Virus genome (UHGV): UHGV-0118082
Source of the DNA: a virus
Direction: 5' to 3' (one strand)
DNA: 23,476 nucleotides
In this document: positions 1,403 through 23,122 of the stretch, in pieces
Numbering within the stretch: the first letter of the stretch is position 1
How the letters are laid out: each line of letters opens with the position of its first letter
The notes under the pieces: generated by a model
Told to the model about the DNA's origin: nothing
Seen by the model: the letters and a program-made list of their open reading frames with translations, nothing else
Database searches by the model: none
Made by a program: the position numbers and the translations under genes

Positions 1403-1765
1403 ATGTTTAAGCTATTTGCAAAGTACACCTCGATAGGTGTGTTGAATACGCTAATACACTGGGTAGTTTTTGGTGTATGTATCTATGTTGCGCATACCAA
1501 TCAGACTATTGCTAACTTCGCAGGTTTCGTCGTTGCAGTGAGTTTCAGCTTCTTCGCGAATGCCAGATTCACCTTCAAAGCCGCCACAACAACGAAACGT
1601 TACATGCTCTATGTAGGATTCATGGGAATGTTGAGTGCGGCAGTAGGTTGGGCTGCTGACAAATGCTCACTTCCTCCTATTATCACGCTCATTACCTTTT
1701 CCGCCATCAGTCTGGTGTGCGGTTTCGTCTATTCAAAATTCATTGTATTTAGGAATGTGAAATGA
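1403..1765 (+). CDS. gtrA: GtrA-family flippase for bactoprenol-linked glucose
   Basis: 120-aa small hydrophobic protein; ATGA overlap with the downstream GT-2 glycosyltransferase; size and position match phage gtrA. Confidence 0.85.
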
Positions 1766-2688
1766 AAATATCTCTGGTCGTTCCTGTCTTCAATGAAGAA
1801 GATGCGATACCTATTTTCTATAAGACGGTACGTGAATTCGAAAAGTTGAAGCCATATGACGTCGAAATTGTATTCATAAATGACGGAAGTAAAGATTCTA
1901 CAGAATCTATTATCAATGCGCTTGGGGAGTCAGATCCACTAGTTAAGCCATTGTCCTTCACCCGTAATTTTGGCAAAGAGCCTGCGTTGTTTGCTGGGCT
2001 TGATCATGCAACTGGTGAAGCGATAATTCCAATAGACGTTGATTTACAGGACCCGATTGAAGTTATCCCTCACCTAATTGAGAAATGGCAGGCCGGGGCG
2101 GATATGGTATTAGCTAAGAGATCTGACCGCTCAACAGATGGTAGACTTAAACGAAAAACCGCCGAGTGGTTCTATAAGTTACATAATAAAATCAGCAACC
2201 CAAAGATTGAAGAGAACGTTGGAGATTTCCGCCTGATGTCGCGTGAGGTTGTTGAAAACATCAAGCTTTTACCTGAACGAAATCTTTTTATGAAGGGTAT
2301 CCTAAGCTGGGTTGGCGGTCGTACTGATGTGGTTGAGTATGCCCGCGCCGAACGTGTAGCCGGTAGTACTAAATTTAATGGCTGGAAGCTATGGAATCTC
2401 GCACTTGAGGGGATCACCAGCTTCTCCACCTTCCCGCTTCGCATCTGGACGTATATTGGCTTGTTTGTGGCGAGCGTAGCATTTATCTATGGCACATGGA
2501 TGATTATAGACACTATAGCTTTCGGTAATGCCGTTCGCGGGTACCCTTCTATTTTGGTATCTATACTATTTTTAGGTGGAATTCAATTGATTGGTATCGG
2601 AGTTCTAGGTGAATATATCGGAAGAATATATATAGAGACAAAAAAACGTCCTAAGTTTATTTTAAAGGGTTCAAAAAATGAGCATTGA
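1762..2688 (+). CDS. gtrB: GtrB bactoprenol glucosyltransferase (GT-2 family)
   Basis: 308 aa; GT-2 motifs visible in translation ([23 protein letters not shown]); hydrophobic C-terminal segment; overlaps start of next gene. Confidence 0.9.
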
Positions 2689-4306
2689 TTTTAATAAATA
2701 TAAATTAGCACTTTCGCTATTAATTATTTATTTTTTAACTTTTGTTATAAATTCTCTCGTCCCGCTAATATCTGATGATTTTAGCTATATGCGCATTGGT
2801 ATTGACTTATCAAGTCGTTATCATCACTATATGACATGGAGCGGAAGAATCGAGGCTGACATAATAAGCTCGGCAATACTTCAATTTAATTCAGTAATAG
2901 TAAAATCATTAATAAATGCAGCCCCATTGGTTGCTTTATGCTTTTTTGTGCATAAAATAATATCATTATATTCTGAATCAGACCCTTTAATCACGCCTCT
3001 GATTACATTTTCATGTTATTTTTTATTTAACCCCAATCTTGGGCAGACAACATTCTGGATTGTTGGGTCTGCAAACTATCTTTGGACTACTACCTTTTGC
3101 ATTGTTTTTACATATTCAATATGTCTACTGACAACATTAGATCGCATTACTAAAACAAAGGAAATATTTATATATTTATCGGCACTTTTAGCTGGGTGTT
3201 CTAGTGAGGCAAGTGCTGCATTAATGGTGTCAGCATCAGCGCTAGCAATTTTAAACAACATATATATCAGCAATAAAAATAAGCGAATTGCTATTATTGC
3301 CTTTGTATTTTGCTTGGCTGGGTTTATTGTTTTAATATTTGCCCCGGGGAATAAGGTAAGACTAGCTAGTGATGTTTTCAGCACGTGGAGAGGAATGGGT
3401 ATATTTGAAAAGGTAGAATACCATTTTTATGAGCGAGTCCCTAGCCTCATACGTTACATAAAATTTGAGTTTGCAATTGCTGCTGTATGTGTTATTTCAT
3501 ACATCGGTTATAATAAATTTAAATTTAGCACATCAGTATTCTGCTTATATGTAGCACCTATAATAGGTTTTTCTTTCATACTTGTTATTCTGGCATTTTC
3601 CCCATATACTCCAGAGCGTTCAGTTAATATACTTACTGTGATCCTTGCTATCCCTATATGTGCCTTAGTTAATAAACTAACAAAGCATGTCAAAATAGCA
3701 ATTACATTTTCCTTTGTTATTGTTATGCTTATAAACTGGACTCATGTTTATTCATCATATTCGAGAGTTTATATTCAGGACATTATGAGAAGATCCTACA
3801 TGCAGGATATGATTGAAAAAGGAGTTGATGACATAACAATTCCACAATATAACTTCTCAAACTTTTTCAAAGAACTTGATTTATGGGATTTATTTAACAA
3901 TGAATATGAGATAGCAAGATATTTTGGAGCCAAGAAAATTAACGTAATCCCGGTAAATATTGACTATTCCTATTTATTGACACAGCCTAACTACACTTGC
4001 AAAATAATTGATGAAAAATCAGTTGAAAAGATATACTCAATTAATTTTTATGAGGATTCTTTTAATGATGTACTGCTAATTGGAGAGACAACAAGTAGCA
4101 CTGGAACGATAGGTGAATTAACTAAAGTTAATTTTTCTGTTGTTACTGATGTTAGAAAATACCAATATGAATTGCCTTCAAATAACGTGTCTCTATTTGG
4201 ACGCAATCTCCTTGTTGTGAGAACCCCAGCGATTAATATTGACAAAGCAAAAGAGGTGTCATTCTTAATAAATGGGATGAATTGTGTATCGACAATTGAT
4301 AGATAA
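2678..4306 (+). CDS. GtrC-type serotype-specific O-antigen glucosyltransferase (polytopic membrane protein), assigned by operon position
   Basis: 542-aa ORF immediately after gtrB, highly hydrophobic N-terminal two-thirds, AT-rich; third position of a gtr operon. Confidence 0.7.
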
Positions 4307-4341: not shown

Positions 4342-6516
4342 TTATTTAATTCTAAAGTATGTTGATCCTGTGCTTAGGAATTCATATATCCCCTGTGATT
4401 CTATTGTTGTAATTAGCACTGGTCCATTATAAATACCTATGGTCTGACCATTAAAATTTACTGATGAAAGATCTAGCAAAACCCTGTTCCTAAGAAGCGT
4501 TCCATTTAATATAGTTAACTCTGGAAGCATCAGTGTTTTACCAGGAGATAAAGTACCTCCAAATTTTATTATATTCCTAGAATCATCAGGCCATGGTGAA
4601 GCCGAATTAATATCCGGTATTATTAGAATCTTACCTGAGTCACGATAGTCTGATGTTGAATAGAATGTTCCTTTACCTGAAGTATGTTCGTTATCATAAA
4701 TGCCAGCAGGGGCATTTGTGAGAACAGGTTGATTAAATCTAGTGCCTGCGAATCTTGCAATATAAGGTGCAGAAGTAGACATCGTTAGTGTTGGTTGTCC
4801 ATTGCCATTAAAACCAACTGCGTTATCTCCAATACTTGATCTTGAAAATTCATTTACATCAAAGAAACCAATATCAGTGAATCCACCTTCGCTCACTGAT
4901 TCATGGCTGTTTCCGGTAAATGAAAAGTTAGTAAAACGAGACGAGCATTTAAATGCCGGACCTGATTCTGTAGTGTGGTGCCTACCAAACTTAACACCGG
5001 TGAATGTAATGTTATCACCATTTACACAATCCATAACATTGCTGATGTACCCAGAACCTGAGTTCCACCCAATAGAACCGCCTACCCATGAAAAACCATC
5101 AAACTCCAGAATGTCAAATATCTTGCCGCCTGTAAAAGCATAGTGAGTGCAGTTTGAGAACATACATGACTTCATTCTGCGACCGCGGAAACCATACTTA
5201 GTTCCGAACAGATGGATATTAACAAACTGTCCACCTTCTATTCCTTGAATGCTTCCACCACTCAAATCAGTACCACCTACAAATTCTTTGGTCCCATCGA
5301 CTATGATGTCATTCCACAGCCCATAATGCCCCAGACCAGATCCTTCTCCGCCGCCATTCCCATCTTTGAAAGAGAAAGTTCGATATGTTTGCAGAACCCA
5401 TAAGTTGCTTATAGTAGGGTTCTCTATGACATCCAAACTGATGCATGTTGCTGTGCGCGGGTAGGTGTCATCTGGTAACTGATGCGCTCTTGATGTAAAT
5501 CTGACAACTTTTGTGATGTTAGATATCTCTGATGAAGGGGTTCCATTGCACCCAGTAACTCCGGTTAATGTACAACTCCCATCAGAGTTATTAACAAGTC
5601 CTGTAGCAAAGAACGCCCCGGAGTTAGTACTGAATTGACAGAAGTTACTTACCGGAACACCTGCGGTGTTGTTGTCAGTCAAAGGCCATGTAATTATATT
5701 TCCACCATTAGCCTGAAATGGATTTGATGCGAGTGTAATGGTATTGGATGTTTTGCTTATCACATCTGTGTTTTCTGACCCTACATATTGTGATATCACC
5801 AAGCGGTCTAATGAATAGCAAACATTACCAAACACAATCCCCCTTGAGTTAAGTCCAACCCTTATCTCTGGGGCATTCCCCAGGGAGTTTATTACACCTT
5901 CACCTCTTATTCCTATGGATACAGGTATTCCATCAATGGCAAATGGTATTGCAACCTCTGTGATTATGTTTATTTTTGAGTTCGCTGTAACAATCAGCTC
6001 TCCGTAGCCAATACGCACTAACGAGTAAATAGCAAGTTTAATTGCTGGTGAATCATTTGTGATGCCAGGTTCCTCAATGAAATTTTTAACTTCATTGATT
6101 CGGTAACCGTTTAGAAGCCCAACGCAAGCCCATTTAGTTGTTTCTACATTTGGAGTTTCACTTGATGAGATGGTGTGCGGTAACTCTCCTGTCCATACAT
6201 ACCATAATCCATCAGTGTAAAGATAAGCATCATTCTTTGATGATATAGTTACACCAGAAGAGAAATCTCCCTTTTTGACAAAAATTGATTGCTTGTAGTC
6301 ACTATAAATAGTTCCTCCATATGAGGAACCAATAAGCTTATCTCCACCAGAAGATGCTAATCTATGCTCAAATTGATCAGGGTCATACTTAAGTACATTC
6401 GGGAAATAGAACTGCTGCGAACCATACGCATCATATACAGCCATAGAATGGCCCTGCACAGTTACGAACTTGGCAATCTGTCCGTTATATACCGGATAGC
6501 CGACTTGGCTAATGTT
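4342..6516 (-). pseudogene. Tailspike gene remnant lacking the N-terminal head-binding domain (beta-helix receptor-binding/enzymatic part retained)
   Basis: Minus-strand frame open from the TAA at 6517-6519 to the stop at 4342. Translation ...[29 protein letters not shown]...VLKYDPDQ matches the end of the P22 gp9 head-binding domain ([28 protein letters not shown]...VLKYDPDQ) as I recall it. No ATG; first possible start is GTG at 6459; the upstream ~80-100 codons of a normal tailspike are absent. Confidence 0.75.
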
Positions 6517-6896
6517 TTATTAGCTGTTTTAGCTAATGTTAAGCTGTCCTGGCTAATCCACTGAGAAACCACCTTGTTCACTCCGATTTTCACGCCATCA
6601 GCAATGAGGAATTTACGCTCGATAAGCTGGCGCTTGGCAGCGCAAACATGAGTGTGATGAATACCTGTCATGGCTGCTATCTGCGTGTTTGTGAGTCGAT
6701 CCATCGGCTTATTGAATCCGTATGTCTTGCGCATGATAGCGAGCATCACCTTCAACTGCCGGACGGTTAAATCAGCCATCAGCAGACTGTCGGTAATCTC
6801 GTTAGCAACGCGCATGAAACCATCTTCGGTATCTGCCACGCGATGCTCCACGACCTCCAGTTGAGGCCTGTAATCAGCTAACTTAACGACGCCCAT
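6462..6896 (-). pseudogene. Replication initiator O-like gene, N-terminal DNA-binding domain only, truncated at its internal iterons
   Basis: 144-aa ORF; ADLTVRQLKVMLAIMRKTYGFNKPMDRLT resembles the lambda O N-terminal domain (ADLTKRQFKVLLAILRKTYGWNKPMDRIT). Last ~25 codons are read from the iteron region and junction, then stop; no C-terminal P-interaction domain. Confidence 0.75.
6496..6557 (-). repeat. Origin-type iterons inside the O-like gene (ori-lambda-like position)
   Basis: On the coding strand three ~19-bp units with dyad symmetry: ATTAGCCAGGACAGCT, ATTAGCTAAAACAGCTAAT, ATTAGCCAAGTCGGCT. Same position relative to the O N-terminal domain as the lambda ori iterons. Confidence 0.55.
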
Positions 6897-7044
6897 GTTT
6901 CACTCCTGCTTTGGCTAGTCTGTAAACACCAACAAGGCGCTCTGCGAACGCCCTGTTATTTGCTGCGGCTACCACTAATCCCTCAGGTGAATCAGGGTGT
7001 CGAATCTCTTCTTTTTCCTGGTATTTCTTACGACGTTTTGTCAT
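6889..7044 (-). CDS. Small hypothetical protein (51 aa) between cII and the O-like gene
   Basis: ATG at 7044 preceded by CAGGAGT Shine-Dalgarno; MTKRRKKYQEKEEIRHPDSPEG...; below the 60-aa track cutoff; stop overlaps the O-like start region. Confidence 0.4.
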
Positions 7045-7076
7045 AATTACTCCTGTGGATTGATCCAGTAATTCCC

Positions 7077-7373
7077 TCAGAATTGCATATCAATTTGCTT
7101 AAAATCCTCGGTGGCGGCCGGGGATTTTTTCTTTGTGATTCCATCCAATGCATACTTAAAAGCCCTGCTAATCGGACTGATGTCTGATGCCATTCCGAAA
7201 GCACACAAGACCGAAGCAATAAATCTCCAGTCCGTTCTGCTTATCTTCGATTCATGACAGCCAATCATCTTTGCCAGACCGCGCTGGGTAAGCGTTGACA
7301 GGTTGATGAGTAAATCAGTTTCAGCGCGATCAATTTCTCGCTGTGTTGGCTTGCTATAACTTGCTTGTGTCAT
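7077..7373 (-). CDS. cII: CII-like transcriptional activator
   Basis: 98 aa; HTH region LAKMIGCHESKISR and C-terminus KKKSPAATEDFKQIDMQF parallel lambda CII (KSQISR ... KKRPAATERSEQIQMEF); directly downstream of cro. Confidence 0.85.
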   Translation of the reverse strand: MTQASYSKPTQREIDRAETDLLINLSTLTQRGLAKMIGCHESKISRTDWRFIASVLCAFGMASDISPISRAFKYALDGITKKKSPAATEDFKQIDMQF

Positions 7374-7457
7374 TTGTTAATTTTCCAATAGTGAATAGTT
7401 AGTTGAAAGGTATGCGTGGAAACGCATATGGCCTTAGTTGGTCAGATATCTTGGGGC

Positions 7458-7472
7458 TCGCTTTGTCAGCGA
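7458..7472 (-). promoter_or_regulatory. nutR boxB-like hairpin (P22 type)
   Basis: Minus-strand TCGCT-GACAA-AGCGA stem-loop between cro and cII; same pentaloop as the nutL hairpin at 9634-9648. Confidence 0.5.
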
Positions 7473-7510
7473 CGTAGGACGAATGTCCATTGTGAAAAGA
7501 GCGGTGTTAC

Positions 7511-7711
7511 TTATGCAGTTGTTTTTTTGTTACTTGGGAAGGGCTTTATTTCTTCCGCATAAACGCTTCCATCAGCGTTTATAGTTAAAAAAATCTTTCG
7601 GCCTGCATGAATGGCCTTGTTAATCGCGCTTTGATATACGCCGAGATCTTTAGCCGTCTTGGTTTGCCCAAAGCGTATTGCATAATCTTTCAGGGTTATG
7701 CGTTGTTCCAT
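7511..7711 (-). CDS. cro: Cro repressor
   Basis: 66 aa [66 protein letters not shown], essentially the lambda Cro sequence as I recall it; AGGAGG Shine-Dalgarno upstream. Confidence 0.95.
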
Positions 7712-7737
7712 ACAACCTCCTTAGTACAGGCAACCAT

Positions 7738-7801
7738 TATCACCGCTAGAGGTAAAATAGTCAACACGCACGGTGTTAGAAGTTTATCCCTTGCGGTGAT
7801 A
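7738..7801. promoter_or_regulatory. Right operator OR1-OR2-OR3 with divergent PR and PRM promoters
   Basis: Three 17-bp operators at 7738-7754 (OR1), 7762-7778 (OR2), 7785-7801 (OR3); PR -35 TTGACT and -10 GATAAT on minus strand; cI starts at 7812 with almost no leader. Confidence 0.85.
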
Positions 7802-7808
7802 GATTTAA

Positions 7809-8525
<717 letters not shown>

Positions 8526-8556
8526 TTGTTTTATTTTTCACGTAATAGGATGATTT

Positions 8557-8898
8557 ATGACACAATTTCAACTTGCATTAATCGCTAGAGAAGTTGATGG
8601 AGAAGTCATCCATCTTCGCACCAAAGACGGATACATCAATGCCACCGCGATGTGCAAGTCTGCGGGGAAGCTACTTGCTGACTATACACGACTAAAAACA
8701 ACACAAGATTTTTTTGATGAATTATCACGCGATATGGGGATTCCCATATCGGAGTTAATTCAATCATTTAAAGGCGGAAGAGCAGAGAATCAAGGGACTT
8801 GGGTTCATCCAGACATCGCAATTAATTTAGCTCAGTGGCTATCTCCAAAATTTGCAGTGCAAGTATCGAGATGGGTGCGTGAGTGGATGTCAGGTTAA
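8557..8898 (+). CDS. KilA-N/APSES-fold DNA-binding domain protein occupying the rexA position
   Basis: 113 aa; RTKDGYINATAMCKSAGK ... FKGGRAENQGTWVHPDIAINLAQWLSPKF parallels the APSES/KilA-N signature (DxYVNAT..LKAA.. / QGGxGKYQGTWVP...A..LA); AGGA Shine-Dalgarno upstream of the ATG. Confidence 0.7.
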   Translation: MTQFQLALIAREVDGEVIHLRTKDGYINATAMCKSAGKLLADYTRLKTTQDFFDELSRDMGIPISELIQSFKGGRAENQGTWVHPDIAINLAQWLSPKFAVQVSRWVREWMSG

Positions 8899-8937
8899 AG
8901 AGCGCCTGCCGAACTCCCTATCCACCTTAAGCGGTAT

Positions 8938-9316
8938 ATGACAAACCGAGGCAGAGTTCCTCATACGCACTTTTCTATGCTTAATGAACTGACGTTTAAC
9001 TTGGTTGCGCCACTTGAACAGGCCGGATATACGCTGCCAGAAAAAATGGTCCCTGATATTTCAGAGGGTAGGGTTTTCTCGCAATGGCTCCGTGACAACC
9101 GGGGGGTTGAGCCGAAGACATTCCCAACATATAACCATGAGTACCCAGATGGCCGGACATTCCCGGTACGTCTATACCCAAACGAATATTGCAGATTTCA
9201 AACAATACTTCAACGAAGTGTGGCTGCCTCAGTACGCTCCTAAATATTTTGCTGAACGAGACCAAAGGGCATTGACGTTGATTGAGAAAATCATGCTACC
9301 TGACCTTGATTCCTAA
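8938..9316 (+). pseudogene. Hypothetical gene split by a +1 frame change (two protein-like ORF halves in different frames)
   Basis: Frame of 8938 reads protein-like to ...RTFPVRLYPNEY then degenerates. Frame of 9005 is junk-like at first but protein-like from ...IADFKQYFNEVWLPQYAPKYFAERDQRALTLIEKIMLPDLDS; switch point near 9175-9195. Confidence 0.45.
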
Positions 9317-9324
9317 ATGTTATT

Positions 9325-9350
9325 CCCGGCCACAGAGCCGGGTTTTCTTT
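9325..9350 (+). terminator. Intrinsic terminator ending the cI-operon transcript (lambda timm equivalent)
   Basis: CCCGG-ccacagag-CCGGG hairpin followed by TTTTCTTT; surrounding sequence matches the lambda region between rexB and OL as recalled. Confidence 0.7.
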
Positions 9351-9502
9351 GCCTCACGATCCCCCTCACCCAAGAACACATAACCAATTGTATCTATTTG
9401 AAAATAAATAGATACAACTCACTAAACATAGCAGTTCAGATCTCTCACCTACCAAACAATGCACCCCTGCAAAAAATAAATTCATATAAAAAACATACAG
9501 AT

Positions 9503-9565
9503 AACCATCTGCGGTGATGAATTATCTCTAGCGGTGTTGACATAAATACCACTGGCGGTGATACT
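9503..9565 (+). promoter_or_regulatory. Left operator OL3-OL2-OL1 and PL promoter
   Basis: OL3 9503-9519, OL2 9523-9539, OL1 9547-9563 (TACCACTGGCGGTGATA); PL -35 TTGACA at 9537-9542 and -10 GATACT at 9560-9565; matches the canonical PL sequence except a few bases. Confidence 0.85.
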
Positions 9566-9633
9566 AAACACATCAGCAGGACGCACTACTCACCAGGGCG
9601 GTGAATATACAACGATTCAAATATGAATCTACG

Positions 9634-9648
9634 GCGCTGACAAAGCGC
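9634..9648 (+). promoter_or_regulatory. nutL boxB hairpin (P22 type)
   Basis: GCGCTGACAAAGCGC: 5-bp stem with GACAA pentaloop, the P22 boxB sequence as recalled; lies between PL and the N-like gene. Confidence 0.6.
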
Positions 9649-9776
9649 AATAACCAAAGTGAACTTTGGGGTGAATGCAGAAGCTAACCTTCTCGGCGGA
9701 GGCGCTTTGCAATGATTACGCTACCGGAGTTAGTCGCCCGGCTGTATTCACCGCCAAAGTTCACCAGGAGGTCTAT

Positions 9777-10160
9777 ATGACACGCAGAACTCAGTTCAAA
9801 GGCAATTCACGTTCTCGTCGTCGTGAGCGTTTAAAGGCAAAGGCATTAGCTAACGGCGTACTGGCCCGCGAAGAAGCAATAAGTTCAGAAGTATTACACC
9901 GCCCTACTCTAAGCAGAGCGCAGATTCAGGCTAAAGGTACTCACGAAACGCCTGAGCGCATAGAAGACGCTAAGCCAATTAAGTTCATGGCACAGGACGT
10001 GATCTGGCAACAGAAAGAATACAGACGCAATCTGGAGAGAGCGGCCATTGTGTACGCGAATGAGTTTGGACATAAGCAACCAGAAACTGGTGTATGTCTT
10101 CCAAATGTAGCTCTTTACGCAGCAGGATACCGGAAATCAAAACAACTGACGGCGAGATGA
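9777..10160 (+). CDS. N-like transcription antiterminator (arginine-rich motif; P22 gp24/phage 21 N type)
   Basis: ATG at 9777 with AGGAGG Shine-Dalgarno; N-terminus MTRRTQFKGNSRSRRRERLKAKA is an arginine-rich RNA-binding motif; C-terminus LPNVALYAAGYRKSKQLTAR resembles P22 gp24. The track start at 9675 would include nutL and is rejected. Confidence 0.7.
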   Translation: MTRRTQFKGNSRSRRRERLKAKALANGVLAREEAISSEVLHRPTLSRAQIQAKGTHETPERIEDAKPIKFMAQDVIWQQKEYRRNLERAAIVYANEFGHKQPETGVCLPNVALYAAGYRKSKQLTAR

Positions 10161-10220
10161 CTTGTGTTGGTCGCCAGAAAATGAAATTAGGCAGCAAACC
10201 ACTTATTTGAGAGCTGATAC

Positions 10221-15288: not shown

Positions 15289-15313
15289 AGCCGCCTGATG
15301 GCGGTTTTTTATT
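15289..15313 (+). terminator. Intrinsic terminator after the early-left gene block
   Basis: CCGCC-tgat-GGCGG hairpin followed by TTTTTTATT. Confidence 0.7.
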
Positions 15314-15355
15314 GCCTGATTTGCAGGTTCGATTCCCTATTCGGAGATAGCACTC

Positions 15356-15556
15356 ATGCAACACGAACTACAACCTGATTCACTGGTTGATTTGAAATTC
15401 ATCATGGCTGATACTGGCTTTGGTAAAACCTTCATCTATGACCGGATTAAGTCCGGCGACCTGCCAAAAGCCAAAGTTATCCACGGGCGAGCAAGATGGT
15501 TATATCGTGACCATTGTGAATTCAAAAATAAGCTCTTAAGCCGCGCCAATGGGTAA
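15356..15556 (+). CDS. AlpA/Xis-like small HTH protein (excisionase or regulator) upstream of integrase
   Basis: 66 aa; LKFIMADTGFGKTFIYDRIKSGDLPKAKVIHGRARWLYRDHCEF fits the AlpA/excisionase HTH pattern; GGAGA Shine-Dalgarno. Confidence 0.7.
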   Translation: MQHELQPDSLVDLKFIMADTGFGKTFIYDRIKSGDLPKAKVIHGRARWLYRDHCEFKNKLLSRANG

Positions 15557-15828
15557 AATAGCGGGTAAAATATTTTTCACATCTAAAAAACACCATTCCA
15601 ATCAATCCCCTGCCGCCTCAAGTAGATGTCTGCAGGGGACAATACCTTTTCATTTCATCACGTTTCAACACACTTCACCTCCCCCCTTAAAACCAGCAAA
15701 ATCAGGGCCTGTCGCCTTGAACATGGTTTCAGTTGATTTCATGACATTACATGATTCTGATGGTATCGTTGATGGTACTCACGGTTCGATAAACCGATAC
15801 CATCAACTGACAACAAAGATTACTCTCC
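15557..15828 (+). promoter_or_regulatory. Integrase leader with direct and inverted repeats; candidate Int arm-type sites/att region
   Basis: GGGTAAAATA direct repeat (15551-15560, 15563-15572); inverted repeat GATGGTATCG / CGATACCATC (15759-15768, 15795-15804) plus an extra GATGGTAC copy; hairpin CCCCTGC...GCAGGGG at ~15607-15638. The track ORF 15549-15842 is considered non-coding. Confidence 0.3.
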
Positions 15829-17100
15829 ATGGCACTAAATGAGCTATCACCCAAGAAAGTTGAAAACGCTAAACCCAAAGAAACAGACTACAAACTGACG
15901 GATGGGGGAAGCCTGTATCTTTTAGTTAAAAAGAACGGGACCAAGGCATGGCGAATGAACTACAGATTTAACGGCAAACAAGCTACGCTGGCTTTGGGCG
16001 TTTTCCCAGACGTTTCGCTGGCACTTGCCCGTAAGCGTAGAGATGAAGCAAGGCAACTTTTAGCCGACGGTGTTGATCCCAGAGTATCTAAAAAAGCAGC
16101 GCCAACAGAACCCGCCTCTGCTACATTCCAGACAATCGCTTTAGAGTGGCATAAAGGCTCTATAGGCCATCCCTCATGGAAAGAGATTACCCGCACTAAA
16201 ATTTTAAGAGAAATGGAAAATCATATTTTCCCATATATCGGAAATAAACCCATCGACTCATTAAAAACAAGTGACCTGTTGCCATTATTGGTGAGGATGA
16301 GTGATCAGGGAATTGGAGCAACAACAGGAAGAGTGAAAACTACTCTTGCAAGCGTTTTCCGGTACGCTATTCAGCGTGGAATTGTTGAATACAATCCTAC
16401 CCATGATCTAAGAGGAGCAATTTCCAGCCCCAAAATAAAGCATCGCCCTGCACTTCCGTTAGAACGATTACCCGAATTAATATCAAAAATTGATAGCTAT
16501 ACAGGGAGGCCGTTAACTAAGCTGGCAGTATTATTTTCTCTTCATACTTTTGTTCGCTCCAGTGAACTGAGACACGCAAGATGGGAGGAAATTAATTTTG
16601 AAAATGCAATGTGGACTATTCCTGCTCAAAGAAAAAGAATTGATGGGGTAAAATATTCAGAGCGTGGGGCAAAAATGGGCAGTATTCATTATGTTCCATT
16701 ATCTAATGAAGCTATTGATGTTCTCGAAGCTATTAAAAAAATAAGTGGTGAGTATGAACTTATTTTCCCCGGAGATAGTAACCCTTACAAACCAATGAGT
16801 GAGAACACAGTTAATAAGTCATTAAGAATTATGGGGTACGACACGCAGGTGGACATTTGCCTTCATGGATTTAGGGCAATGGCGTGCTCAGCCCTGACAG
16901 AATCAGGCTTATGGTCGAGGGATGCAGTAGAACGGCAAATGAGCCATCAAGAACGAAATGAAGTGCGAGCCGCTTATGTACACTTAGCTCAGCATATGCA
17001 TGAACGTCGTCGGATGATGCAATGGTGGTCTAATTATATTGAAGCTAACACTGATAGATATATTGCCCCCTATAAAATGAAAAAACTACGCGTTGTTTGA
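15829..17100 (+). CDS. int: Tyrosine integrase, P4-type (DUF4102-like N-terminal arm-binding domain)
   Basis: 423 aa; N-terminal LYLLVKKNGTKAWRMNYRFNGK and C-terminal PMSENTVNKSLRIMGY...HGFRAMACS...ERQMSHQERNEVRAAYVH closely parallel P4 Int as recalled. Confidence 0.95.
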   Translation: MALNELSPKKVENAKPKETDYKLTDGGSLYLLVKKNGTKAWRMNYRFNGKQATLALGVFPDVSLALARKRRDEARQLLADGVDPRVSKKAAPTEPASATFQTIALEWHKGSIGHPSWKEITRTKILREMENHIFPYIGNKPIDSLKTSDLLPLLVRMSDQGIGATTGRVKTTLASVFRYAIQRGIVEYNPTHDLRGAISSPKIKHRPALPLERLPELISKIDSYTGRPLTKLAVLFSLHTFVRSSELRHARWEEINFENAMWTIPAQRKRIDGVKYSERGAKMGSIHYVPLSNEAIDVLEAIKKISGEYELIFPGDSNPYKPMSENTVNKSLRIMGYDTQVDICLHGFRAMACSALTESGLWSRDAVERQMSHQERNEVRAAYVHLAQHMHERRRMMQWWSNYIEANTDRYIAPYKMKKLRVV

Positions 17101-17174
17101 AAATAAGAAAATGGCTAATAGTAGTAAAGTCTGCTATTCGCCCCATTTTACCATATGTGCATACAGGTGACGTG

Positions 17175-18149
17175 ATGAGCGATAATACACGATTAAATGT
17201 TTGGGAAAGGAATAGTATTCCTGTAATGGAATTTTGCTCCCTAAAACGAGCTGCTGAACTACTTAATTGCCAAATTGATGACCTTATCCATTTTGCTCAA
17301 ATTGGAATTATCGAATTTTGCTTAGAATTAAATGGTTTCGAAGCTGCGCTAATGATGATGCGTAAAGGTGGAGATTTTAAAGATTGGGAAAACATGTACC
17401 CACCCAGAGTATTAAACTATAGTAATAAATCTGCATTAAGCCATTTCATACCAAAAGCAAAATTCGATATTGATTATACAGAAGATAAGCCATTTTCACC
17501 TCCAAAACAAATATACCATTTAGAAAACAAACCAAATATAAAAAGCCCATTAATCTTACTTTCTGGATTGTGGTCTATATGTGTCATCAGCCCAACATCT
17601 TCATTATACAAAGAACTAAAGGTATATGGTAAAGCAAGGCTATTAGCACATGATATTTCTTTTAAAGAAGCTAATATGCCATTCACTAATGCTGCATTTG
17701 GCAGTGATGAGTGGGTAATATTAGCAATGTCCCCTTTCGAAGGCTTATCATCAATAGAGGGATTAGTATCTCCATCTAATAAAAATATTATTGGAAATAT
17801 AACACTGGATGATATCTATTTAACAAGATACCAAATAGAAAAATTAGATAACGGTGTTGGCAAAGAGCTACCCAGCTATGTGAATGGTGGTGTATCCAGC
17901 ATCGAAAGCATCCGAAGAGTGCATGGTAATGTTGAAGCATCAGCAACAAAAAGAGAGGCAGTGTACAAAGCAGCTATTTATTGGTTACTAAATGACCCAG
18001 CATCTTGCAATGGAAAACGAGGAAAACTGACTATTGACGCGTGGGCAGATAAAATCGTGGCAGAAAGAAACAATCCAAAAACAAAGGTTGAACTTGGAAA
18101 AGATAAGATAAAAGAATGTCTTAGCTCATCTAAAGCAGGAAGATTTTAA
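17175..18149 (+). CDS. Hypothetical cargo protein, AT-rich, with possible N-terminal HTH; function unknown
   Basis: ATG at 17175 with AGGTGA Shine-Dalgarno (track start 17097 is TTG overlapping int stop); 324 aa; N-terminus FCSLKRAAELLNCQIDDLIHFAQIGII looks helix-turn-helix-like; no catalytic motif recognised; clearly more AT-rich than int and primase flanks. Confidence 0.6.
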   Translation: MSDNTRLNVWERNSIPVMEFCSLKRAAELLNCQIDDLIHFAQIGIIEFCLELNGFEAALMMMRKGGDFKDWENMYPPRVLNYSNKSALSHFIPKAKFDIDYTEDKPFSPPKQIYHLENKPNIKSPLILLSGLWSICVISPTSSLYKELKVYGKARLLAHDISFKEANMPFTNAAFGSDEWVILAMSPFEGLSSIEGLVSPSNKNIIGNITLDDIYLTRYQIEKLDNGVGKELPSYVNGGVSSIESIRRVHGNVEASATKREAVYKAAIYWLLNDPASCNGKRGKLTIDAWADKIVAERNNPKTKVELGKDKIKECLSSSKAGRF

Positions 18150-18220
18150 GTGGTAATATTTTATACCATCATAAAAACAAAATAGTGGCACTGATAATTT
18201 AGCCCTAACCTTGCCATCAT

Positions 18221-18248
18221 CTGCCGTGTTCATTACATAACACGGCAG
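18221..18248 (+). promoter_or_regulatory. Perfect 10-bp inverted repeat immediately upstream of alpA, overlapping its ribosome-binding region
   Basis: CTGCCGTGTT-cattacat-AACACGGCAG; right arm ends 8 nt before the alpA ATG; loop carries the CATTACA motif repeated at 18702-18747. Confidence 0.45.
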
Positions 18249-18256
18249 GTAATTTC

Positions 18257-18466
18257 ATGACATTAAAAACTTACCCTATCACCGGGCATGCCCGCCCACG
18301 GGCTACTGCTGACTTTTTGCAAGTAAGCACAGTTACTCTCTGGCGCTGGGAAAAAAACAATCCTGAATTTCCAAAATCCACACGTATTTCAAAACGGGTA
18401 ACTGTTTACGATGCACAAGAAATTAGACAGTGGGTAAAAGCTCAATCCTCAGATGCTGATAAATAA
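18257..18466 (+). CDS. alpA: AlpA-family transcriptional regulator (P4 Vis-like)
   Basis: 69 aa; FLQVSTVTLWRWEKNNPEFPKSTRISKRVTVYDAQEIRQWV fits the AlpA HTH pattern. Confidence 0.8.
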   Translation: MTLKTYPITGHARPRATADFLQVSTVTLWRWEKNNPEFPKSTRISKRVTVYDAQEIRQWVKAQSSDADK

Positions 18467-18517
18467 TATGACGACCTTAGAAAAATGGGAAAGAAGAAAA
18501 TCTTCCCCATGTATTTA

Positions 18518-18697
18518 TCAGTTCTTTGGTTCGGAACCACGACTTTGTAGCTCTTTGCGGATAATGCGTTTGATCCAAGCAGCCAGTGATTCATCACCAT
18601 CCTGCTGCTGTGCTTCTTCCATTAACTCACGCAATTCAGGGTCAAGTCTGAACTGGAATGGTGGATTACCACGTCTTTCGTTCTTGTGTGTTGACAC
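18518..18697 (-). CDS. Small ribbon-helix-helix-like protein (59 aa), divergent from the satellite early operon
   Basis: GTG start at 18697 inside a palindrome; translation ...PPFQFRLDPELRELMEEAQQQDGDESLAAWIKRIIRKELQ has the beta-strand then helix pattern of RHH/Arc-type proteins; no ATG start, weak evidence. Confidence 0.4.
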   Translation of the reverse strand: MSTHKNERRGNPPFQFRLDPELRELMEEAQQQDGDESLAAWIKRIIRKELQSRGSEPKN

Positions 18698-18747
18698 GTC
18701 AATTACACCTATTGTAATGTGCTTATGTGTAATGACACATTACACAC
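18691..18747. promoter_or_regulatory. Divergent promoter/operator region with three dyad-symmetric elements
   Basis: TTGAC-ac-GTCAA (18691-18702); ATTACA-cctat-TGTAAT (18702-18718); TGTGTAATG-aca-CATTACACA (18727-18747). Confidence 0.5.
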
Positions 18748-18828
18748 AAGGAATCAAAATAGCAACGCCCCGGAGTGTTTGCGGCACTGCCGAGGCGTCT
18801 GACCAAAGCGTTAGATGAGGTAACGAAA

Positions 18829-19005
18829 ATGGCTAAACAGAAGTGTACCTGGTTATTTGCGGCGATCAACCGCAGTCAACGCAATGCCCGTCCTGTGATG
18901 TTAAGGATCACCGCAGATAACGAGCGCTCAGCGCGGCGCAGACTTGCCCCGGACTATGTGCTGAGCTTTGCCGGTCGCATTCCCTGTGGAGGTGAACATG
19001 CGTAA
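18829..19005 (+). CDS. Small protein, possibly Icd-like (host cell division inhibitor family) - tentative
   Basis: ATG at 18829 with GAGGT Shine-Dalgarno (track start 18775 is GTG); 58 aa; TWLFAAINRSQ...LRITADNERSARRRLAPDYVLSFAGRIP resembles the Icd-like pattern as I recall it. Confidence 0.45.
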   Translation: MAKQKCTWLFAAINRSQRNARPVMLRITADNERSARRRLAPDYVLSFAGRIPCGGEHA

Positions 19006-19357
19006 TTATCCGCAACCCGGCGAACGCTGGCAGCATGAGCGTGGCTGGACTGTCACGATTATCAGATTAACTGAAGCCTCGCCCTCCGTGGCGCTGGTTA
19101 ACCCTGAATTCAGCTGTGAAGTGCTGATTCGTCATGACAGCGACAATAAGCTTTCTTCCTGCCCTCTGGCATGGTTTGAGCAGCGGTATACGCGCCTGTT
19201 TAATGCCCCGCTCTTTAAACCTTCGCTAGCTCCCGCGGGGGGTAGCGGCTCTGGCTCGCTGACGCTGCATCCGTCGGTGGTATTTACCCGCTGGCGGGAG
19301 CGCAGCATACGGCGTTCTGCTGAACCTGACGACAGTCACTATTCAAAGTTTCTCTGA
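18998..19357 (+). CDS. Hypothetical satellite early protein
   Basis: ATG at 18998 with GGAGG Shine-Dalgarno 5 nt upstream (track start 18968 is TTG); 119 aa; overlaps upstream stop. Confidence 0.5.
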   Translation: MRNYPQPGERWQHERGWTVTIIRLTEASPSVALVNPEFSCEVLIRHDSDNKLSSCPLAWFEQRYTRLFNAPLFKPSLAPAGGSGSGSLTLHPSVVFTRWRERSIRRSAEPDDSHYSKFL

Positions 19358-19388
19358 CAAAACACCGCTGAAAACGGAGTAATCCACG

Positions 19389-19673
19389 ATGAATATTTCA
19401 AACGGGCACAACGGTGCTCAGGGCCACGCTTTGCCTGAAAAACACAATAGCGGTGCTTTTGCGTATGGGTTGTCAGAGGACGGTTTCGGAAAGCTGGACC
19501 GCGCCAGAAAGGCCTGCGACATGTTGCAGCTTCTCTTTTCTGAATACCCCTCGCAGGGCGGAACGCTGGATGCAGGATGTGCGCCAGGCATCGCCGCGCT
19601 GATGGAGTACCTGCGGGCAGATTTGACGGATATTGCGCACAGTTGCGAACTGATTGAAGGAGGCACCCAATGA
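19389..19673 (+). CDS. Hypothetical satellite early protein
   Basis: 94 aa; ATGA overlap with next gene; GC-rich codon usage consistent with neighbours. Confidence 0.5.
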   Translation: MNISNGHNGAQGHALPEKHNSGAFAYGLSEDGFGKLDRARKACDMLQLLFSEYPSQGGTLDAGCAPGIAALMEYLRADLTDIAHSCELIEGGTQ

Positions 19674-20053
19674 ACCAGCCGCAGGTTTCTATTTTTCCGG
19701 CAGAAATGACCACTGCGCTTTACCGGCGGGCTATTGCATCGGCCTGGCGCCAGAAAGCGCTGACCGAAACCGGCTGCGATCACTATGGTCCGCACAGCCT
19801 GACGGTTGAACGTATTGAAATGGCCATTGCCCTGCATATCGAGTGCGCACTGATTAACGAATATGGCGAAGCACAGGGAGCAGCGGCTGCACTGGCGCTG
19901 CTGACTGACATGCTGGAGCCATCATTGCTGACCGCGCCACCGGTACTGACTGTGCGCGGCTGTGAAGTGATGGCGGAGCTGTACCGCACACTTCCGGCGG
20001 CATTTGATGACTTCTGCAGCTCGGGTGTATCGCTGTATCAGGGGGAAATATGA
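19670..20053 (+). CDS. Hypothetical satellite early protein
   Basis: 127 aa; GAAGGAGG Shine-Dalgarno; ATGA overlap with the primase gene. Confidence 0.55.
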   Translation: MNQPQVSIFPAEMTTALYRRAIASAWRQKALTETGCDHYGPHSLTVERIEMAIALHIECALINEYGEAQGAAAALALLTDMLEPSLLTAPPVLTVRGCEVMAELYRTLPAAFDDFCSSGVSLYQGEI

Positions 20054-22722
20054 CAACACAGACGGTTACGCAGATTTCAGCCGCAGCGCGGGGAAAATGG
20101 CCCGTCATTCTGCAGATGCTGCGTATTGATGTACCTGAAAACGGCAGGCACGGTCCCTGCCCGAAATGTGGGGGCAAGGATCGCTTCCGCCTCGATGACC
20201 TCGACGGGCGCGGGACGTGGATTTGCAGCCAGTGCGGCAATGGTGATGGTCTGGATCTGGTTAAGCTCATAACCGGTTACGGCATCAGAAAGGCAGCGCA
20301 GGAGGTGGCGCAGGTGCTTAATGTGCCGGATGTGCAGGAACTGCCCGTTAAGCCCGCCAGGCAAAAAGCCCCTAAACGCGATATGAGCCTTACCGTGGCG
20401 GCCCTGATGAAAGAGAGTCACACGGGAGAAAGCCCCTATCTGACCGGAAAAGGGTTCGCCGGATACCCGGCCTCCCTGACCGGGAGCGTGCAGCATATCA
20501 GTGGTAAGGATTTCCCTGCCGGTTCCCTGCTGTTACCGCTCACGACAAACGCCGGAGCCGTGACCGGTGCACAGCTTATCGCCCCGACGGGTGAAAAAAG
20601 CATACTGCCCGGCAGCACGATGAAAGGCGCGTTTGTGGCGCTCAGCCCGTTACCGTCTGAACCGCCGGTACAGGTGGTGATTACCGAAGGTTACGCCACG
20701 GCGCTGACGGTAAGCCAGCTCACCGCCGGATGCGTAGTGGCGGCCATATCGGCGGGCAACCTGCCCAACGTCGCACAGGCGCTGCGGGCACGCTGGCCTG
20801 AGGTAAAAATTATCATCGCCGGTGATAACGATTTTCAGGACGGGGGCGAGAATCCCGGCAGATCCTTTGCTGAACGGGCGGCAAAATCAGTCGGTGGCTG
20901 GGTGACGCTGCCACCGGGAGAAATTAAAGCTGACTGGAATGACTTCCACCGTGAGCACGGTATTACACGTGCCCGTGAAGCCTTTCGTAACGGTCTTGTA
21001 CTGTGCGGAGAAGGCCGCACGCAGTTGCCGCACGGGTTCCGTCTTACCCAGGAATATCTCTGGTATGAAAAACAGGTACAGCGCAACGGTGAGACGGAGA
21101 TCCAGAACGTCAAAATATGCAACCCGTTGCGCGTGACGGCAATCACCTGCGATGCTGATGGCGGTAATTTCGGGCGACTGCTGGAGTGGGAAGATACATG
21201 GGGAGAGCGCCGCCGCTGGGCGATGCCGATGGAAATGCTCAGTGGTAGCGGTGAGGAACTACGCCGGGTACTGCTGGTTAACGGGCTGTCCTATATCAGC
21301 ACCACCGGTGAGGCCCGCGCCCGCCTGATGGAATATATCTCGCTGTGTAAACCGGAACGCCGCGTGACCTGCGTCAGCCGCACTGGCTGGCATGGTCAGG
21401 TTTACGTCCTGCAGGATGAGGTCAGCGGTGAAGGTGCAGAGGGTGTCATTCTCCAGACCACTTCCGTGCAGGGGCGCGATTTCCGTGTGTCAGGTACAAC
21501 GGAGGAATGGCGGGAGCACGTTTCCCGTTACTGCACCGGTAACTCCCGCGTGGCGTTTGCCGTCAGTCTGGCCTTTGCTGCACCCCTGTTACGGCTGGTT
21601 GGGATGGACGGCGGCGGCTACCACCTCAAGGGGGAATCGACTGACGGTAAGACCACCACCATGAAAGCGGCAACCTCCGTTTGTGGCGGGCCTGATTACT
21701 GGCAGACGTGGCGGGCAACCGGCAACGCGCTGGAGGGATGCGCCAGCCGCCGCAACGATGCCGCCATGATGCTTGATGAGATCCGGGAGGTGGACGGACG
21801 CGAGGCGGGTAATATCGCCTACATGCTGGCAAACGGTCAGGGCAAGGGCCGTGCCGGTACGGACGGTGAGCTGCGCACCCGTAAGCAGTGGCGGCTGCTG
21901 TTCTTTTCAACCGGCGAGCTGTCACTGACCGAACATGCGGCAAAAGCCGGTGAGCGTACCTTTGCCGGGATGGAAGTCAGGATGATCCAGATCCCCAGCG
22001 ATTCCGGGAAATTTGGCGTATTTGAGGAGCTGCACGGCTTCGACAGCGGCAAGGCTCTGGCGGAACATCTGGAGTGGGCCACGTCCAGCTACTACGGTTC
22101 GCCGTTCAGGGAGTGGCTGAAAGCCCTGACCGCTGACCTTAACGGGCTGACGGCACAGGCAAAGTCACTGATGAAGGAATATACAGCCGCCCTGACCCCG
22201 AAAGATGCGGGTAATCAGGTAGGCCGGGCTGTGAACCGCTTTGCACTGGTGGCGATGGCGGGCGAGCTGGCAACCCGGCTGGGTATTACCGGCTGGCCTG
22301 AGGGTGAAGCGCTGCGGGCAACCCGCGTCTGCCTGAACGCATGGCTGAAAGATCGCGGGCACACCGCCAATCAGGAAGATATTGCCGCACTGGAGCAGGT
22401 ACGCAGCTTCTTTACCGCGAATCAGTACAGCCGCTTTGCTGACTGGCACGACGAGCGTAACCGCCCCGGCAATATGGTGGGCTGGCGCAGGGTGGAGAAA
22501 GGCAGTACCGCGCAGGGCACGGAGGCCGTCACCACGTTCTACGTCATGCCGTCCGGCTGGAAAGAAATCTGCCGGGGATTTGACCCGCGCAAGGTGGCGC
22601 GTCTGTGCGCGGATCGTGGATACCTGCTGCCCTCCACCGATGGCAAGCTGCAGACAACCATTCGCCCGCCAGAGATGAATCCCCGCAGACTCTATGTCTT
22701 CAACAGCGAGGTGCCGGGTTAA
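20050..22722 (+). CDS. Primase-helicase (P4 alpha-like: zinc ribbon + TOPRIM primase + P-loop NTPase)
   Basis: 890 aa; CPKCGG...CSQCG zinc ribbon; TOPRIM-like acidic motifs (VITEGYATA, IIAGDND); Walker A GESTDGKTT and Walker B-like MMLDEIRE. Confidence 0.9.
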   Translation: MTTQTVTQISAAARGKWPVILQMLRIDVPENGRHGPCPKCGGKDRFRLDDLDGRGTWICSQCGNGDGLDLVKLITGYGIRKAAQEVAQVLNVPDVQELPVKPARQKAPKRDMSLTVAALMKESHTGESPYLTGKGFAGYPASLTGSVQHISGKDFPAGSLLLPLTTNAGAVTGAQLIAPTGEKSILPGSTMKGAFVALSPLPSEPPVQVVITEGYATALTVSQLTAGCVVAAISAGNLPNVAQALRARWPEVKIIIAGDNDFQDGGENPGRSFAERAAKSVGGWVTLPPGEIKADWNDFHREHGITRAREAFRNGLVLCGEGRTQLPHGFRLTQEYLWYEKQVQRNGETEIQNVKICNPLRVTAITCDADGGNFGRLLEWEDTWGERRRWAMPMEMLSGSGEELRRVLLVNGLSYISTTGEARARLMEYISLCKPERRVTCVSRTGWHGQVYVLQDEVSGEGAEGVILQTTSVQGRDFRVSGTTEEWREHVSRYCTGNSRVAFAVSLAFAAPLLRLVGMDGGGYHLKGESTDGKTTTMKAATSVCGGPDYWQTWRATGNALEGCASRRNDAAMMLDEIREVDGREAGNIAYMLANGQGKGRAGTDGELRTRKQWRLLFFSTGELSLTEHAAKAGERTFAGMEVRMIQIPSDSGKFGVFEELHGFDSGKALAEHLEWATSSYYGSPFREWLKALTADLNGLTAQAKSLMKEYTAALTPKDAGNQVGRAVNRFALVAMAGELATRLGITGWPEGEALRATRVCLNAWLKDRGHTANQEDIAALEQVRSFFTANQYSRFADWHDERNRPGNMVGWRRVEKGSTAQGTEAVTTFYVMPSGWKEICRGFDPRKVARLCADRGYLLPSTDGKLQTTIRPPEMNPRRLYVFNSEVPG

Positions 22723-22750
22723 GGCTTTGCGTGAGTCTTATTTATTAAGG

Positions 22751-22946
22751 GTAACAGGTGAAACAGGTGGAACACCCGTATTTTACAAGGGCTAAACCTG
22801 TTTCACCTTCTGAAATAGTGAGGTGGAACAGGTGGAACGCCAGCCGATCCGCTGTTCCACCTTGTTACCTGCGATGTTTCACCTGTGATGTGCATATAAA
22901 TGTTTTACAAAACAATGCTGTAACACCTGTTCCACCTGTTTCACCG
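22751..22946. repeat. Iteron cluster / candidate replication origin for the primase-helicase
   Basis: At least eight copies of GGTG(A/G)AACAGG or its complement, in both orientations, flanking an AT-rich stretch at 22889-22920; reminiscent of the TGTTCACC repeats of P4 ori/crr. Confidence 0.65.
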
Positions 22947-23122
22947 CATCCGGGACATAAAGCAGGCTGAAACAGAGGCATTTTTATCTGGCTGGCTGTC
23001 ATGGCCGCGTCTGAATAACCGCAAACGCCCGTTGTGCCAGCCACCACACACTGAGCGCCGATAGTGCGCTTGTGTCAGTCACGACACAATTGACGTAACG
23101 AACCAACCCGGCAGGAGAAGTC

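Follow-up and report, generated by a model that had tools for sequence, protein, structure and literature searches.

The stretch of DNA analysed here, referred to as the window, comprises the 23,476 nucleotides of UHGV virus genome UHGV-0118082 and contains a lambda-type immunity region that is reversed relative to the lambda map (Table 1). In a direct alignment to lambda (J02459), the product of the plus-strand repressor gene is identical to lambda cI at 234 of 237 residues, and 64 of the 66 Cro residues are as in lambda Cro. At the DNA level, lambda 38255-37226 corresponds to window 7497-8526 (the cro-cI block) with 96.3% identity and lambda 35824-35550 to window 9325-9604 (the tIMM/OL/PL block) with 91.8% identity, and both blocks were also recovered in a separate megablast against phage genomes. 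The positions of OL and PL were taken from the latter alignment, as lambda 35550-35824 holds oL1-3, together with a promoter scan. The first-pass annotation had described both flanks as lambda-like and the slot between them as devoid of RexA and RexB, and the alignments bear this out. With the rexB coding sequence ending at lambda 35825 and cI at 37227, one breakpoint coincides with the cI stop codon and the other with the rexB stop/tIMM, so that window 8527-9324 (798 bp) exactly replaces lambda 35825-37225, i.e., 1401 bp consisting of rexB, rexA and the cI-rexA spacer; lambda homology restarts at 9325, the same point as the terminator. The two intervals showed no similarity in a direct alignment, and no Rex domains were found in the Pfam, PHROG and PADLOC scans.

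Table 1. Features in and around the interval between cI and N in the window.
Feature	Position	Strand	Remarks
Tailspike gene without most of the head-binding domain	4342-6459		
N-terminal fragment of replication protein O (Phage_rep_O), 144 aa	6462-6896		abuts the tailspike gene
cII	7077-7373	minus	
cro	7511-7711	minus	
cI repressor, lambda immunity type	7812-8525	+	first gene of the lysogenic (PRM) operon; Pfam HTH_3 and Peptidase_S24
Spacer, cI stop to start of the bstA-like gene	8526-8556	+	31 nt; Shine-Dalgarno AGGA at 8547-8550
Putative aba-equivalent interval	8528-8590	+	by position only: 29 bp upstream and first 34 bp of the gene
Codons 1-113 and ochre stop	8557-8898	+	free KilA-N/APSES domain, 113 aa
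Lesion 1: TAA for GAA, codon 114	8896-8898	+	G>T at 8896, from alignment to PhiR5_2, ML35 and 666R9
Codons 115-211, first two thirds of BstA_C	8899-9189	+	frame continuous with 8557-8895 except for the stop
Lesion 2: 2-bp deletion (CT/TC of codon 212, CTT)	between 9189 and 9190	+	frameshift
Last 42 BstA_C codons and native stop (9314-9316)	9190-9316	+	out of frame
tIMM-like intrinsic terminator	9325-9352	+	hairpin CCCGGC-CACAGA-GCCGGG (9325-9342), then TTTTCTTT
OL operators and PL	9498-9565	+	-35 TTGACA 9537-9542, -10 GATACT 9560-9565
N gene	ends at 10160		downstream of the interval

The 31-nt spacer behind the repressor gene is kept beside three different repressor genes, namely those of the window, E. 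coli H5 and DY612. The promoter scan found no sigma-70-like site between cI and the bstA-like gene, and within 7600-9700 PL (9537-9565) is the sole plus-strand promoter-like site, as the hairpin at 9325-9342 with its T-run is the sole plus-strand terminator-like site. Because the spacer is this short and carries its own Shine-Dalgarno sequence, with no internal promoter and a single downstream terminator, we infer that cI and the bstA-like gene are read in the lysogen as one transcript, which would start at PRM/PRE and stop at tIMM.

Mechanical ORF calling divides the replaced interval into three separate ORFs (8557-8898, 8938-9243 and 9005-9316), and the RefSeq annotation of identical loci is confined to the 113-aa ORF, named a "KilA-N domain-containing protein". 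Both are compatible with the first-pass reading of the slot as a two-gene exclusion cassette, in which a KilA-N protein is followed by a frame-split partner gene of about 125 codons. Alignment to intact alleles refutes that reading, to which we give practically no chance. In a megablast of 8400-9600 against phage genomes, PhiR5_2, a phage on which no paper was found, matched at 97.3% over the whole query, and it carries a single 762-nt CDS after cI. The same uninterrupted 253-aa ORF is present in PhiR5_2 (L001:3158-3919), in E. coli ML35 (L007:9032-9793) and in many others, those of PhiR5_2 and ML35 being 99.4% identical to the window gene in DNA; vB_EcoS-666R9 has an uninterrupted ORF of 257 aa (86% identical) and Proteus phage V3 another (80% identical). 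A three-way alignment with translations shows that window 8557-9316, and with it each of the three ORF pieces, is collinear with the 253-aa ORF. The supposed partner, 8938-9316, is codons 127-253 of the same frame as 8557-8898 and has no start of its own in the near-identical intact alleles, and the "frame split" is the 2-bp deletion; the family to which the single gene belongs had already been described. The module at 8527-9324 is one gene, not a two-gene cassette.

Relative to the intact alleles, the window gene carries the ochre codon and the deletion listed in Table 1 together with substitutions at 8565 and 9206. The sequence between the two lesions is now untranslated or reachable only via internal ATGs such as that at 8938, the shifted reading after the deletion terminates at 9241-9243, and the family-invariant residues F215, F219, W223, Y231 and F232 lie beyond it; conceptual repair regains the 253-aa protein, and with T8896G and CT put back after 9189 its sequence would be that of ML35 and PhiR5_2 except for Y218H. 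The stop at codon 114 truncates the protein exactly in the linker between its two domains and the deletion in codon 212 ruins the end of the C domain, leaving as product at most a free 113-aa KilA-N domain, which could still be made complete since the ochre codon lies within the linker.

In principle, faulty assembly could produce a 2-bp indel, and the assembly of the related strain 81 is riddled with frameshifts. However, the same 827 bp with both lesions recur at 100% identity in 10 independent assemblies, of which two are complete E. coli genomes and the other eight come from isolates or metagenomes, as well as in 7 IMG/VR contigs. The 113-aa product occurs on at least 1000 contigs, whereas the two commonest intact variants are on 924 and 670. 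Independent recurrence of this kind rules out sequencing error as the source of the lesions, and we consider the probability of an error in sequencing or assembly to be negligible. Both lesions are genuine.

As the first-pass annotation had expected of a KilA-N/APSES-type protein, the 113-aa product of 8557-8898 matches Pfam KilA-N (PF04383, E 1.7e-27). Residues 1-252 of the intact 253-aa protein match phrog_6287, "BstA abortive infection system, replication inhibitor" (E 1.8e-82), a PHROG that BstA-BTP1 matches as well (L005:1991-2911, E 2.1e-150). The C-terminal 140 aa of the intact allele match it as well (E 7.3e-50), and the PADLOC BstA model matches the intact allele with E 2.5e-20, in the C domain only. 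A BLASTP comparison with BstA-BTP1 gave 29% identity over 133 C-domain residues (E 5e-15), and hhalign of a 30-sequence profile against BstA-BTP1 gave 97.8% probability and E 1.1e-12 over 197 columns, in an alignment that extends into the N domain. A homologue search at E <= 0.001 returned 2748 relatives bearing names from many proteobacterial genera. All 120 of the 120 relatives listed with precomputed Pfam annotations carry PF26567 (BstA_C), and 118 of these 120 carry PF26567 and PF04383 together, the exceptions being two short partials (P0058 and one other). The name BstA_C comes from these precomputed annotations, because the profile set of our Pfam scan lacks PF26567 and accordingly shows only KilA-N in the intact 253 aa; with this set, two ORF pieces scanned alone gave no match. 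The remnant ORF 9149-9316 in identical loci is weakly flagged as PF26567. NCBIfam has no family for the intact allele or for BstA-BTP1, a PDB sequence search retrieved Mbp1 only (E 0.0017), and comparison of the C domain with solved structures gave no convincing match.

The intact protein is thus laid out as a KilA-N/APSES domain (residues ~1-112), a short linker and BstA_C (~122-252). Two domains are seen in an AlphaFold2 model of P0001, a relative with 86% identity (mean pLDDT 89.8), and the linker at ~113-121 is its lowest-confidence internal block (pLDDT 70 for residues 111-120). Of the features that define the BstA family, the intact allele has a KilA-N(-like) N domain and a BstA_C-homologous C domain, joined in one uninterrupted polypeptide in PhiR5_2, ML35 and DY612. 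In the window this polypeptide is interrupted, and the BstA_C coding sequence is present but out of frame. In its position directly 3' of the repressor gene on the same strand, behind the 31-nt spacer, the window gene agrees with its relatives, as the gene directly follows the repressor in PhiR5_2, ML35, H5, DY612, Proteus V3 and BTP1 as well. The conceptually repaired product of the presumed second gene does have a recognizable family, BstA_C, but as the C-terminal half of the same ORF rather than as an independent gene.

The intact protein might alternatively be a KilA-N regulator or antirepressor-like DNA-binding protein that merely shares the BstA C-terminal domain. Its N domain also matches phrog_129, "transcriptional regulator" (8e-24), its identity to the tested BstA proteins is low, and the 86% homologue in vB_EcoS-666R9 lies between replication genes and the Q antiterminator gene, away from the repressor. 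However, the match to the BstA PHROG (E-82) spans both domains and the hhalign alignment reaches the N domain. Pfam found no ANT (PF03374), KilA-C or P22_AR domain in the 253-aa protein, nor is there a Bro domain; a KilA/Ant-type antirepressor would have an ANT, KilA-C or P22_AR C-terminus, whereas the C half here is BstA_C. In addition, the gene follows the repressor on the lysogenic strand in most of the contexts examined, which is the hallmark position of the family, and BstA proteins only ~40% identical to one another are functionally interchangeable (PMC8585504). A regulator of this kind is thus quite unlikely. We consider 8527-9324, with a probability of about 0.85 as judged from its sequence, to be a bstA-family abortive-infection gene that has been pseudogenised in a lambda-immunity prophage.

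In phage BTP1, bstA is located downstream of cI and is expressed at a high level in lysogens (Owen et al. 2021, PMC8585504). BstA defends against P22, ES18 and 9NA by abortive infection, and after transfer to E. coli also against lambda, phi80, P1 and T7; the protein co-localises with phage DNA, the replication of which it blocks (PMC8585504). This defence depends on the protein and is abolished in BTP1 by stop codons. The phage that carries bstA is protected by aba, a 63-bp DNA element that begins 29 bp upstream of bstA and takes in its first 34 bp, which silences BstA in its own phage and is specific to each homologue (PMC8585504). The position of bstA corresponds to that of rexAB in lambda (PMC8585504), and mosaicism is known to be concentrated in the cI-N region (Degnan et al. 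2007, as cited in PMC8585504). In E. coli, bstA is found only in lambda-like prophages at the tRNA-Arg hotspot (Hochhauser et al. 2023, PMC10121019); several of the loci with the window allele lie between tRNA-Arg/intS and torI-dsdC.

The bstA-like gene is a single-gene "moron" module in the cI-to-tIMM slot. By homology to the BstA proteins of BTP1, K. pneumoniae and E. coli, its intact product would move to foreign phage DNA as this replicates, halt the replication and make the infection abortive. A cognate DNA element (aba) that overlaps the 5' end of the gene would protect the phage carrying it. The first-pass suggestion of an anti-phage candidate in the slot is therefore right as regards the family, which is anti-phage. 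It fails in supposing something that is not obviously a known system, as the BstA family has been described in the rex-equivalent slot (PMC8585504), and in its choice of copy, as the window gene carries two inactivating lesions and so, in its present state, makes a weak candidate for active exclusion. The idea that a defence gene has taken the rex slot is right in kind and already published, and the 253-aa canonical-KilA-N subfamily is already filed as BstA in PHROGs and Pfam; a literature search found no experimental study of this subfamily.

An aba equivalent can be placed in the window by position (Table 1). A repeat search near the start codon, guided by BTP1 aba (located at L005:1962-2024), found no similarity to the BTP1 element and no CCCGCC terminal direct repeats; the lack of similarity is expected because aba elements are homologue-specific. 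The sole feature of the 8528-8590 region is a 7-nt inverted repeat (8568-8574 / 8591-8597), and such short repeats are compatible with chance. The left homology boundary of the module, at ~8529-8531 or 26-28 bp upstream of the ATG, is compatible with the extent of aba, and the window-specific substitution at 8565 falls within the putative aba interval.

Broken and intact alleles are both widespread. A scan of IMG/VR with a 29-mer around codon 114 returned 32 loci, which fall into four types at codons 113-114. GGC-GAA is found at 14 loci, 12 of them intact, one with a stop at codon 177 (L036) and one that runs off the contig end with no lesion seen (L048); GGT-GAA is found at 8 loci, all intact; GGT-TAA with the 2-bp deletion, i.e., the window type, is found at 9 loci; and GGC-TAA without the deletion, the H5 type, is found at a single locus. 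In sum, 11 of the 32 loci are broken and 20-22 uninterrupted. Among complete E. coli genomes, the 22 closest alleles likewise include at least 4 broken ones (EC2641, 1008S19, H5 and H6), and these two proportions suggest that BstA genes are often lost. Further truncations in the protein cluster leave 124, 144, 176 and 239 aa. Where the cI gene upstream of a window-type locus was recovered, it is 99.9-100% identical to the window cI. The carriers of the window allele share an immunity module of ~3 kb (from about 6866 to 9900-10200) that is 99.7-100% identical among them, while they differ in their replication, recombination and lysis modules; the broken allele is present in apparently complete prophages (L011, L013, L016, L017) and at two chromosomal sites, argW/dsdC and ybhC-bioA.

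The H5-type allele, which is also found in E. coli H5 beside a different repressor, is separated from intact alleles (L050, L038) by 5-6 differences and from the window allele by 33, and its C-domain frame is still open past the codon-114 stop. The same G>T thus stands on two distant haplotypes, between which the adjacent base 8895 differs. Spread of a single codon-114 stop by gene conversion would need a breakpoint between 8895 and 8896 and is less parsimonious than recurrence. As 109 single-base changes are able to create a stop in the gene, independent recurrence at one site would occur by chance with a probability of about 1% (1 in 109); instead of chance, selection for a clean cut in the linker, a hotspot of mutation or conversion over a very short tract may be responsible.

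This recurrence raises the question of whether the truncated allele is a selected functional variant, in which the ochre codon frees a useful KilA-N DNA-binding domain that acts, for example, as a decoy or dominant negative against a resident BstA, in aba-like DNA binding, or in relief of self-targeting after an aba mismatch. The stop sits exactly in the inter-domain linker, and only ~1 in 109 possible nonsense changes would be expected to coincide by chance with the identical change seen on the distant haplotype (H5/L025), the nearest relatives of which are intact and the C-domain frame of which is open. The allele is also as common as the intact ones, within a 3-kb module carried by mosaic, apparently complete prophages, and natural BstA homologues consisting of the N or the C region alone exist (Owen et al., PMC8585504). 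However, the window-type copies are virtually identical, so purifying selection has had no time to show, and they may be abundant because they have recently hitch-hiked with an immunity module that is itself successful. The second lesion, together with the further C-domain lesions in derived copies (+G at 9100 in L047 and T>G at 9107 in L026), is what neutral decay would be expected to produce. A Klebsiella variant of the fragment, found on 62 contigs, carries T81A at a family-invariant residue, suggesting that the fragment is also unconstrained; the other truncations listed above, including the stop at codon 177, occur elsewhere in the gene, and ascertainment favours N-terminal fragments. Selection for the truncated allele is therefore unlikely, and a selected role for the free KilA-N domain itself is unlikely to improbable. 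More improbable still is the specific form in which the linker ochre is an adaptive switch, with at least two origins at the same nucleotide, that neutralises BstA-type defence because the free KilA-N domain binds the same DNA target or an aba-like site and so acts on the BstA of the phage itself, once its aba no longer matches, or on that of resident prophages; if true, this switch would explain the spread of the broken allele through many mosaic prophages. The pattern in the window allele is, on present sequence comparisons, that of a pseudogene, and BstA-type defence has most probably been lost in it.

The window prophage as a whole is also defective. Its O fragment abuts a truncated tailspike gene, and the prophage lacks the replication, nin, Q, lysis and head genes. 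A PADLOC scan of ten other ORFs in the window returned nothing, an Rfam search of the whole window found no family, and a tRNA scan found none.

For annotation, the consequence is a correction from "KilA-N domain-containing protein" to a disrupted bstA-family gene in the rex-equivalent slot, which lends a little to the view that the cI-N slot is a hotspot for defence genes. The 253-aa canonical-KilA-N subfamily is widespread, and an intact allele (for example that of ML35 or PhiR5_2) would make a sensible target, unlike the window copy. The recurrent and widespread stop codon in the linker is the sole feature here that deserves follow-up.

While clearly related, the intact allele and the BstA proteins described so far differ in several respects. 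BstA-BTP1 (st313-td, STMMW_03531), BstA-Kp and BstA-Ec share with it the two-domain build of a KilA-N(-like) domain and BstA_C. With BstA-BTP1 in particular it has in common a gene placed right after a cI-type repressor gene on the same strand and followed by a terminator, OL/PL and N, as well as PHROG 6287, a PADLOC BstA match, Pfam BstA_C and an hhalign probability of 97.8%. First, BstA-BTP1 has 307 aa, whereas the intact allele here has 253 aa, and the identity of only ~29% is detectable by BLASTP in the C domain alone. Second, the N domain here is a canonical Pfam KilA-N domain, the nearest kin of which are the KilA-N/APSES DNA-binding domains of P1 KilA (PF04383), yeast Mbp1 and Bqt4, whereas BstA-BTP1 has no Pfam KilA-N match. 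Third, the CCCGCC-flanked aba repeats of BTP1 have no counterpart here. Fourth, the window copy, unlike BstA-BTP1, is broken by a stop and a frameshift.

Lambda RexA/RexB occupies the same slot between the cI stop and tIMM, with presumed PRM-driven expression in the lysogen and an abortive-infection role for the prophage. However, RexAB has no sequence or domain similarity to the bstA-like gene, and it is a two-protein system of a sensor and a membrane channel, whereas BstA is a single cytoplasmic, DNA-associated replication blocker. Phages HK544, mEp332 and CL707 (EF120455-EF120461) have the same cI 3' end and tIMM/OL flanks, with 89-95% identity, and like the window they carry a non-rex insert between these flanks; their inserts are unrelated small ORFs (e.g., HK544c104 and HK544c103), with no KilA-N/BstA_C gene. 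Together, these non-rex inserts illustrate the slot as a known mosaic hotspot.

The repressor genes that lie 5′ of bstA-family genes are unrelated, yet their 3′ ends are near-identical (window 8500–8556 and its equivalents in L018 and L019, two E. coli-allele loci with other repressors, and in L005, Salmonella phage BTP1), with the encoded C-terminal sequences reading QWPEETFG, QWPDDTFG or SQWPDEIFG. A 31-nt spacer, identical among the E. coli alleles, follows the repressor end. This arrangement looks like a conserved linker through which the downstream module can be exchanged by homologous recombination.

At codon 114, in the inter-domain linker (window 8895–8898), the identical GAA-to-TAA change is found on two haplotypes with 33 differences between them (window; L018:6030–6791; L025, an IMG/VR locus of E. 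coli H5 type). The first haplotype reads GGT-TAA at codons 113–114, carries the 2-bp deletion and adjoins lambda cI; the second, that of E. coli H5, reads GGC-TAA, is free of the deletion and adjoins a different repressor. At the neighbouring sites 8895 and 8896, all four combinations of the two alternative bases are found among the alleles.

A second allele group, which encodes the same protein at 86% aa identity, is represented by phage vB_EcoS-666R9 (L002:3968–4741) and by approximately 117 E. coli genomes, in which the DNA identity is around 77%. The 666R9 copy lies apart from the repressor, with the replication genes on one side and the gene for antiterminator Q on the other. Codons 1–40 differ more between the two groups (67–72% nt identity) than codons 41–100 do (83–90%); this stronger divergence might mirror allele-specific sequences resembling aba, the cognate self-immunity element of BTP1.

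The immunity module of the window, approximately 3 kb in length and containing the broken bstA, occurs at 99.7–100% identity in at least 10 prophages, between which the replication, recombination and lysis modules vary. Two chromosomal sites were found for these prophages, i.e., argW/dsdC and the ybhC–bioA region, the latter being the site of lambda integration.

The prophage in the window is defective: the O fragment directly adjoins the tailspike gene, and the remainder of O and all that follows, up to and including the head and tail genes, has been deleted. Other carriers of this bstA allele have deletions unlike that of the window: 1008S19 has an IS1, and EC2641 has an IS3 along with further deletions. 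The right end of the prophage, a torI/xis-like region, matches other argW prophages at 97%.

Immediately past this end lies a P4-like satellite with 99.9–100% identity to elements of other E. coli; psu/sid are annotated in related copies. A 350-aa ORF adjoining its integrase gave no match in Pfam or PADLOC.

Features of the window outside bstA
Feature	Coordinates	Strand	Remarks
O-antigen modification operon	1403–4306		gtrA, gtrB, DUF6056 (gtrC-like)
Tailspike gene	4342–6459	minus	head-binding domain truncated
Replication protein O	6462–6896	minus	N-terminal fragment
Immunity module	~6866–10200		53-aa ORF, cII, cro, cI, broken bstA, OL/PL, start of N
torI/xis-like region	~15301–15641		prophage right end
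P4-like satellite	15630–23476		
Satellite integrase	15829–17100		arm-type, 423 aa
ORF	17097–18149		350 aa
Satellite primase	20050–22722		Toprim/DUF927

The tailspike gene is adjoined by an O-antigen modification (gtr) operon, which constitutes a second phage-resistance function encoded by the prophage and is probably still intact. In BTP1, gtr is likewise paired with bstA, as two resistance functions.
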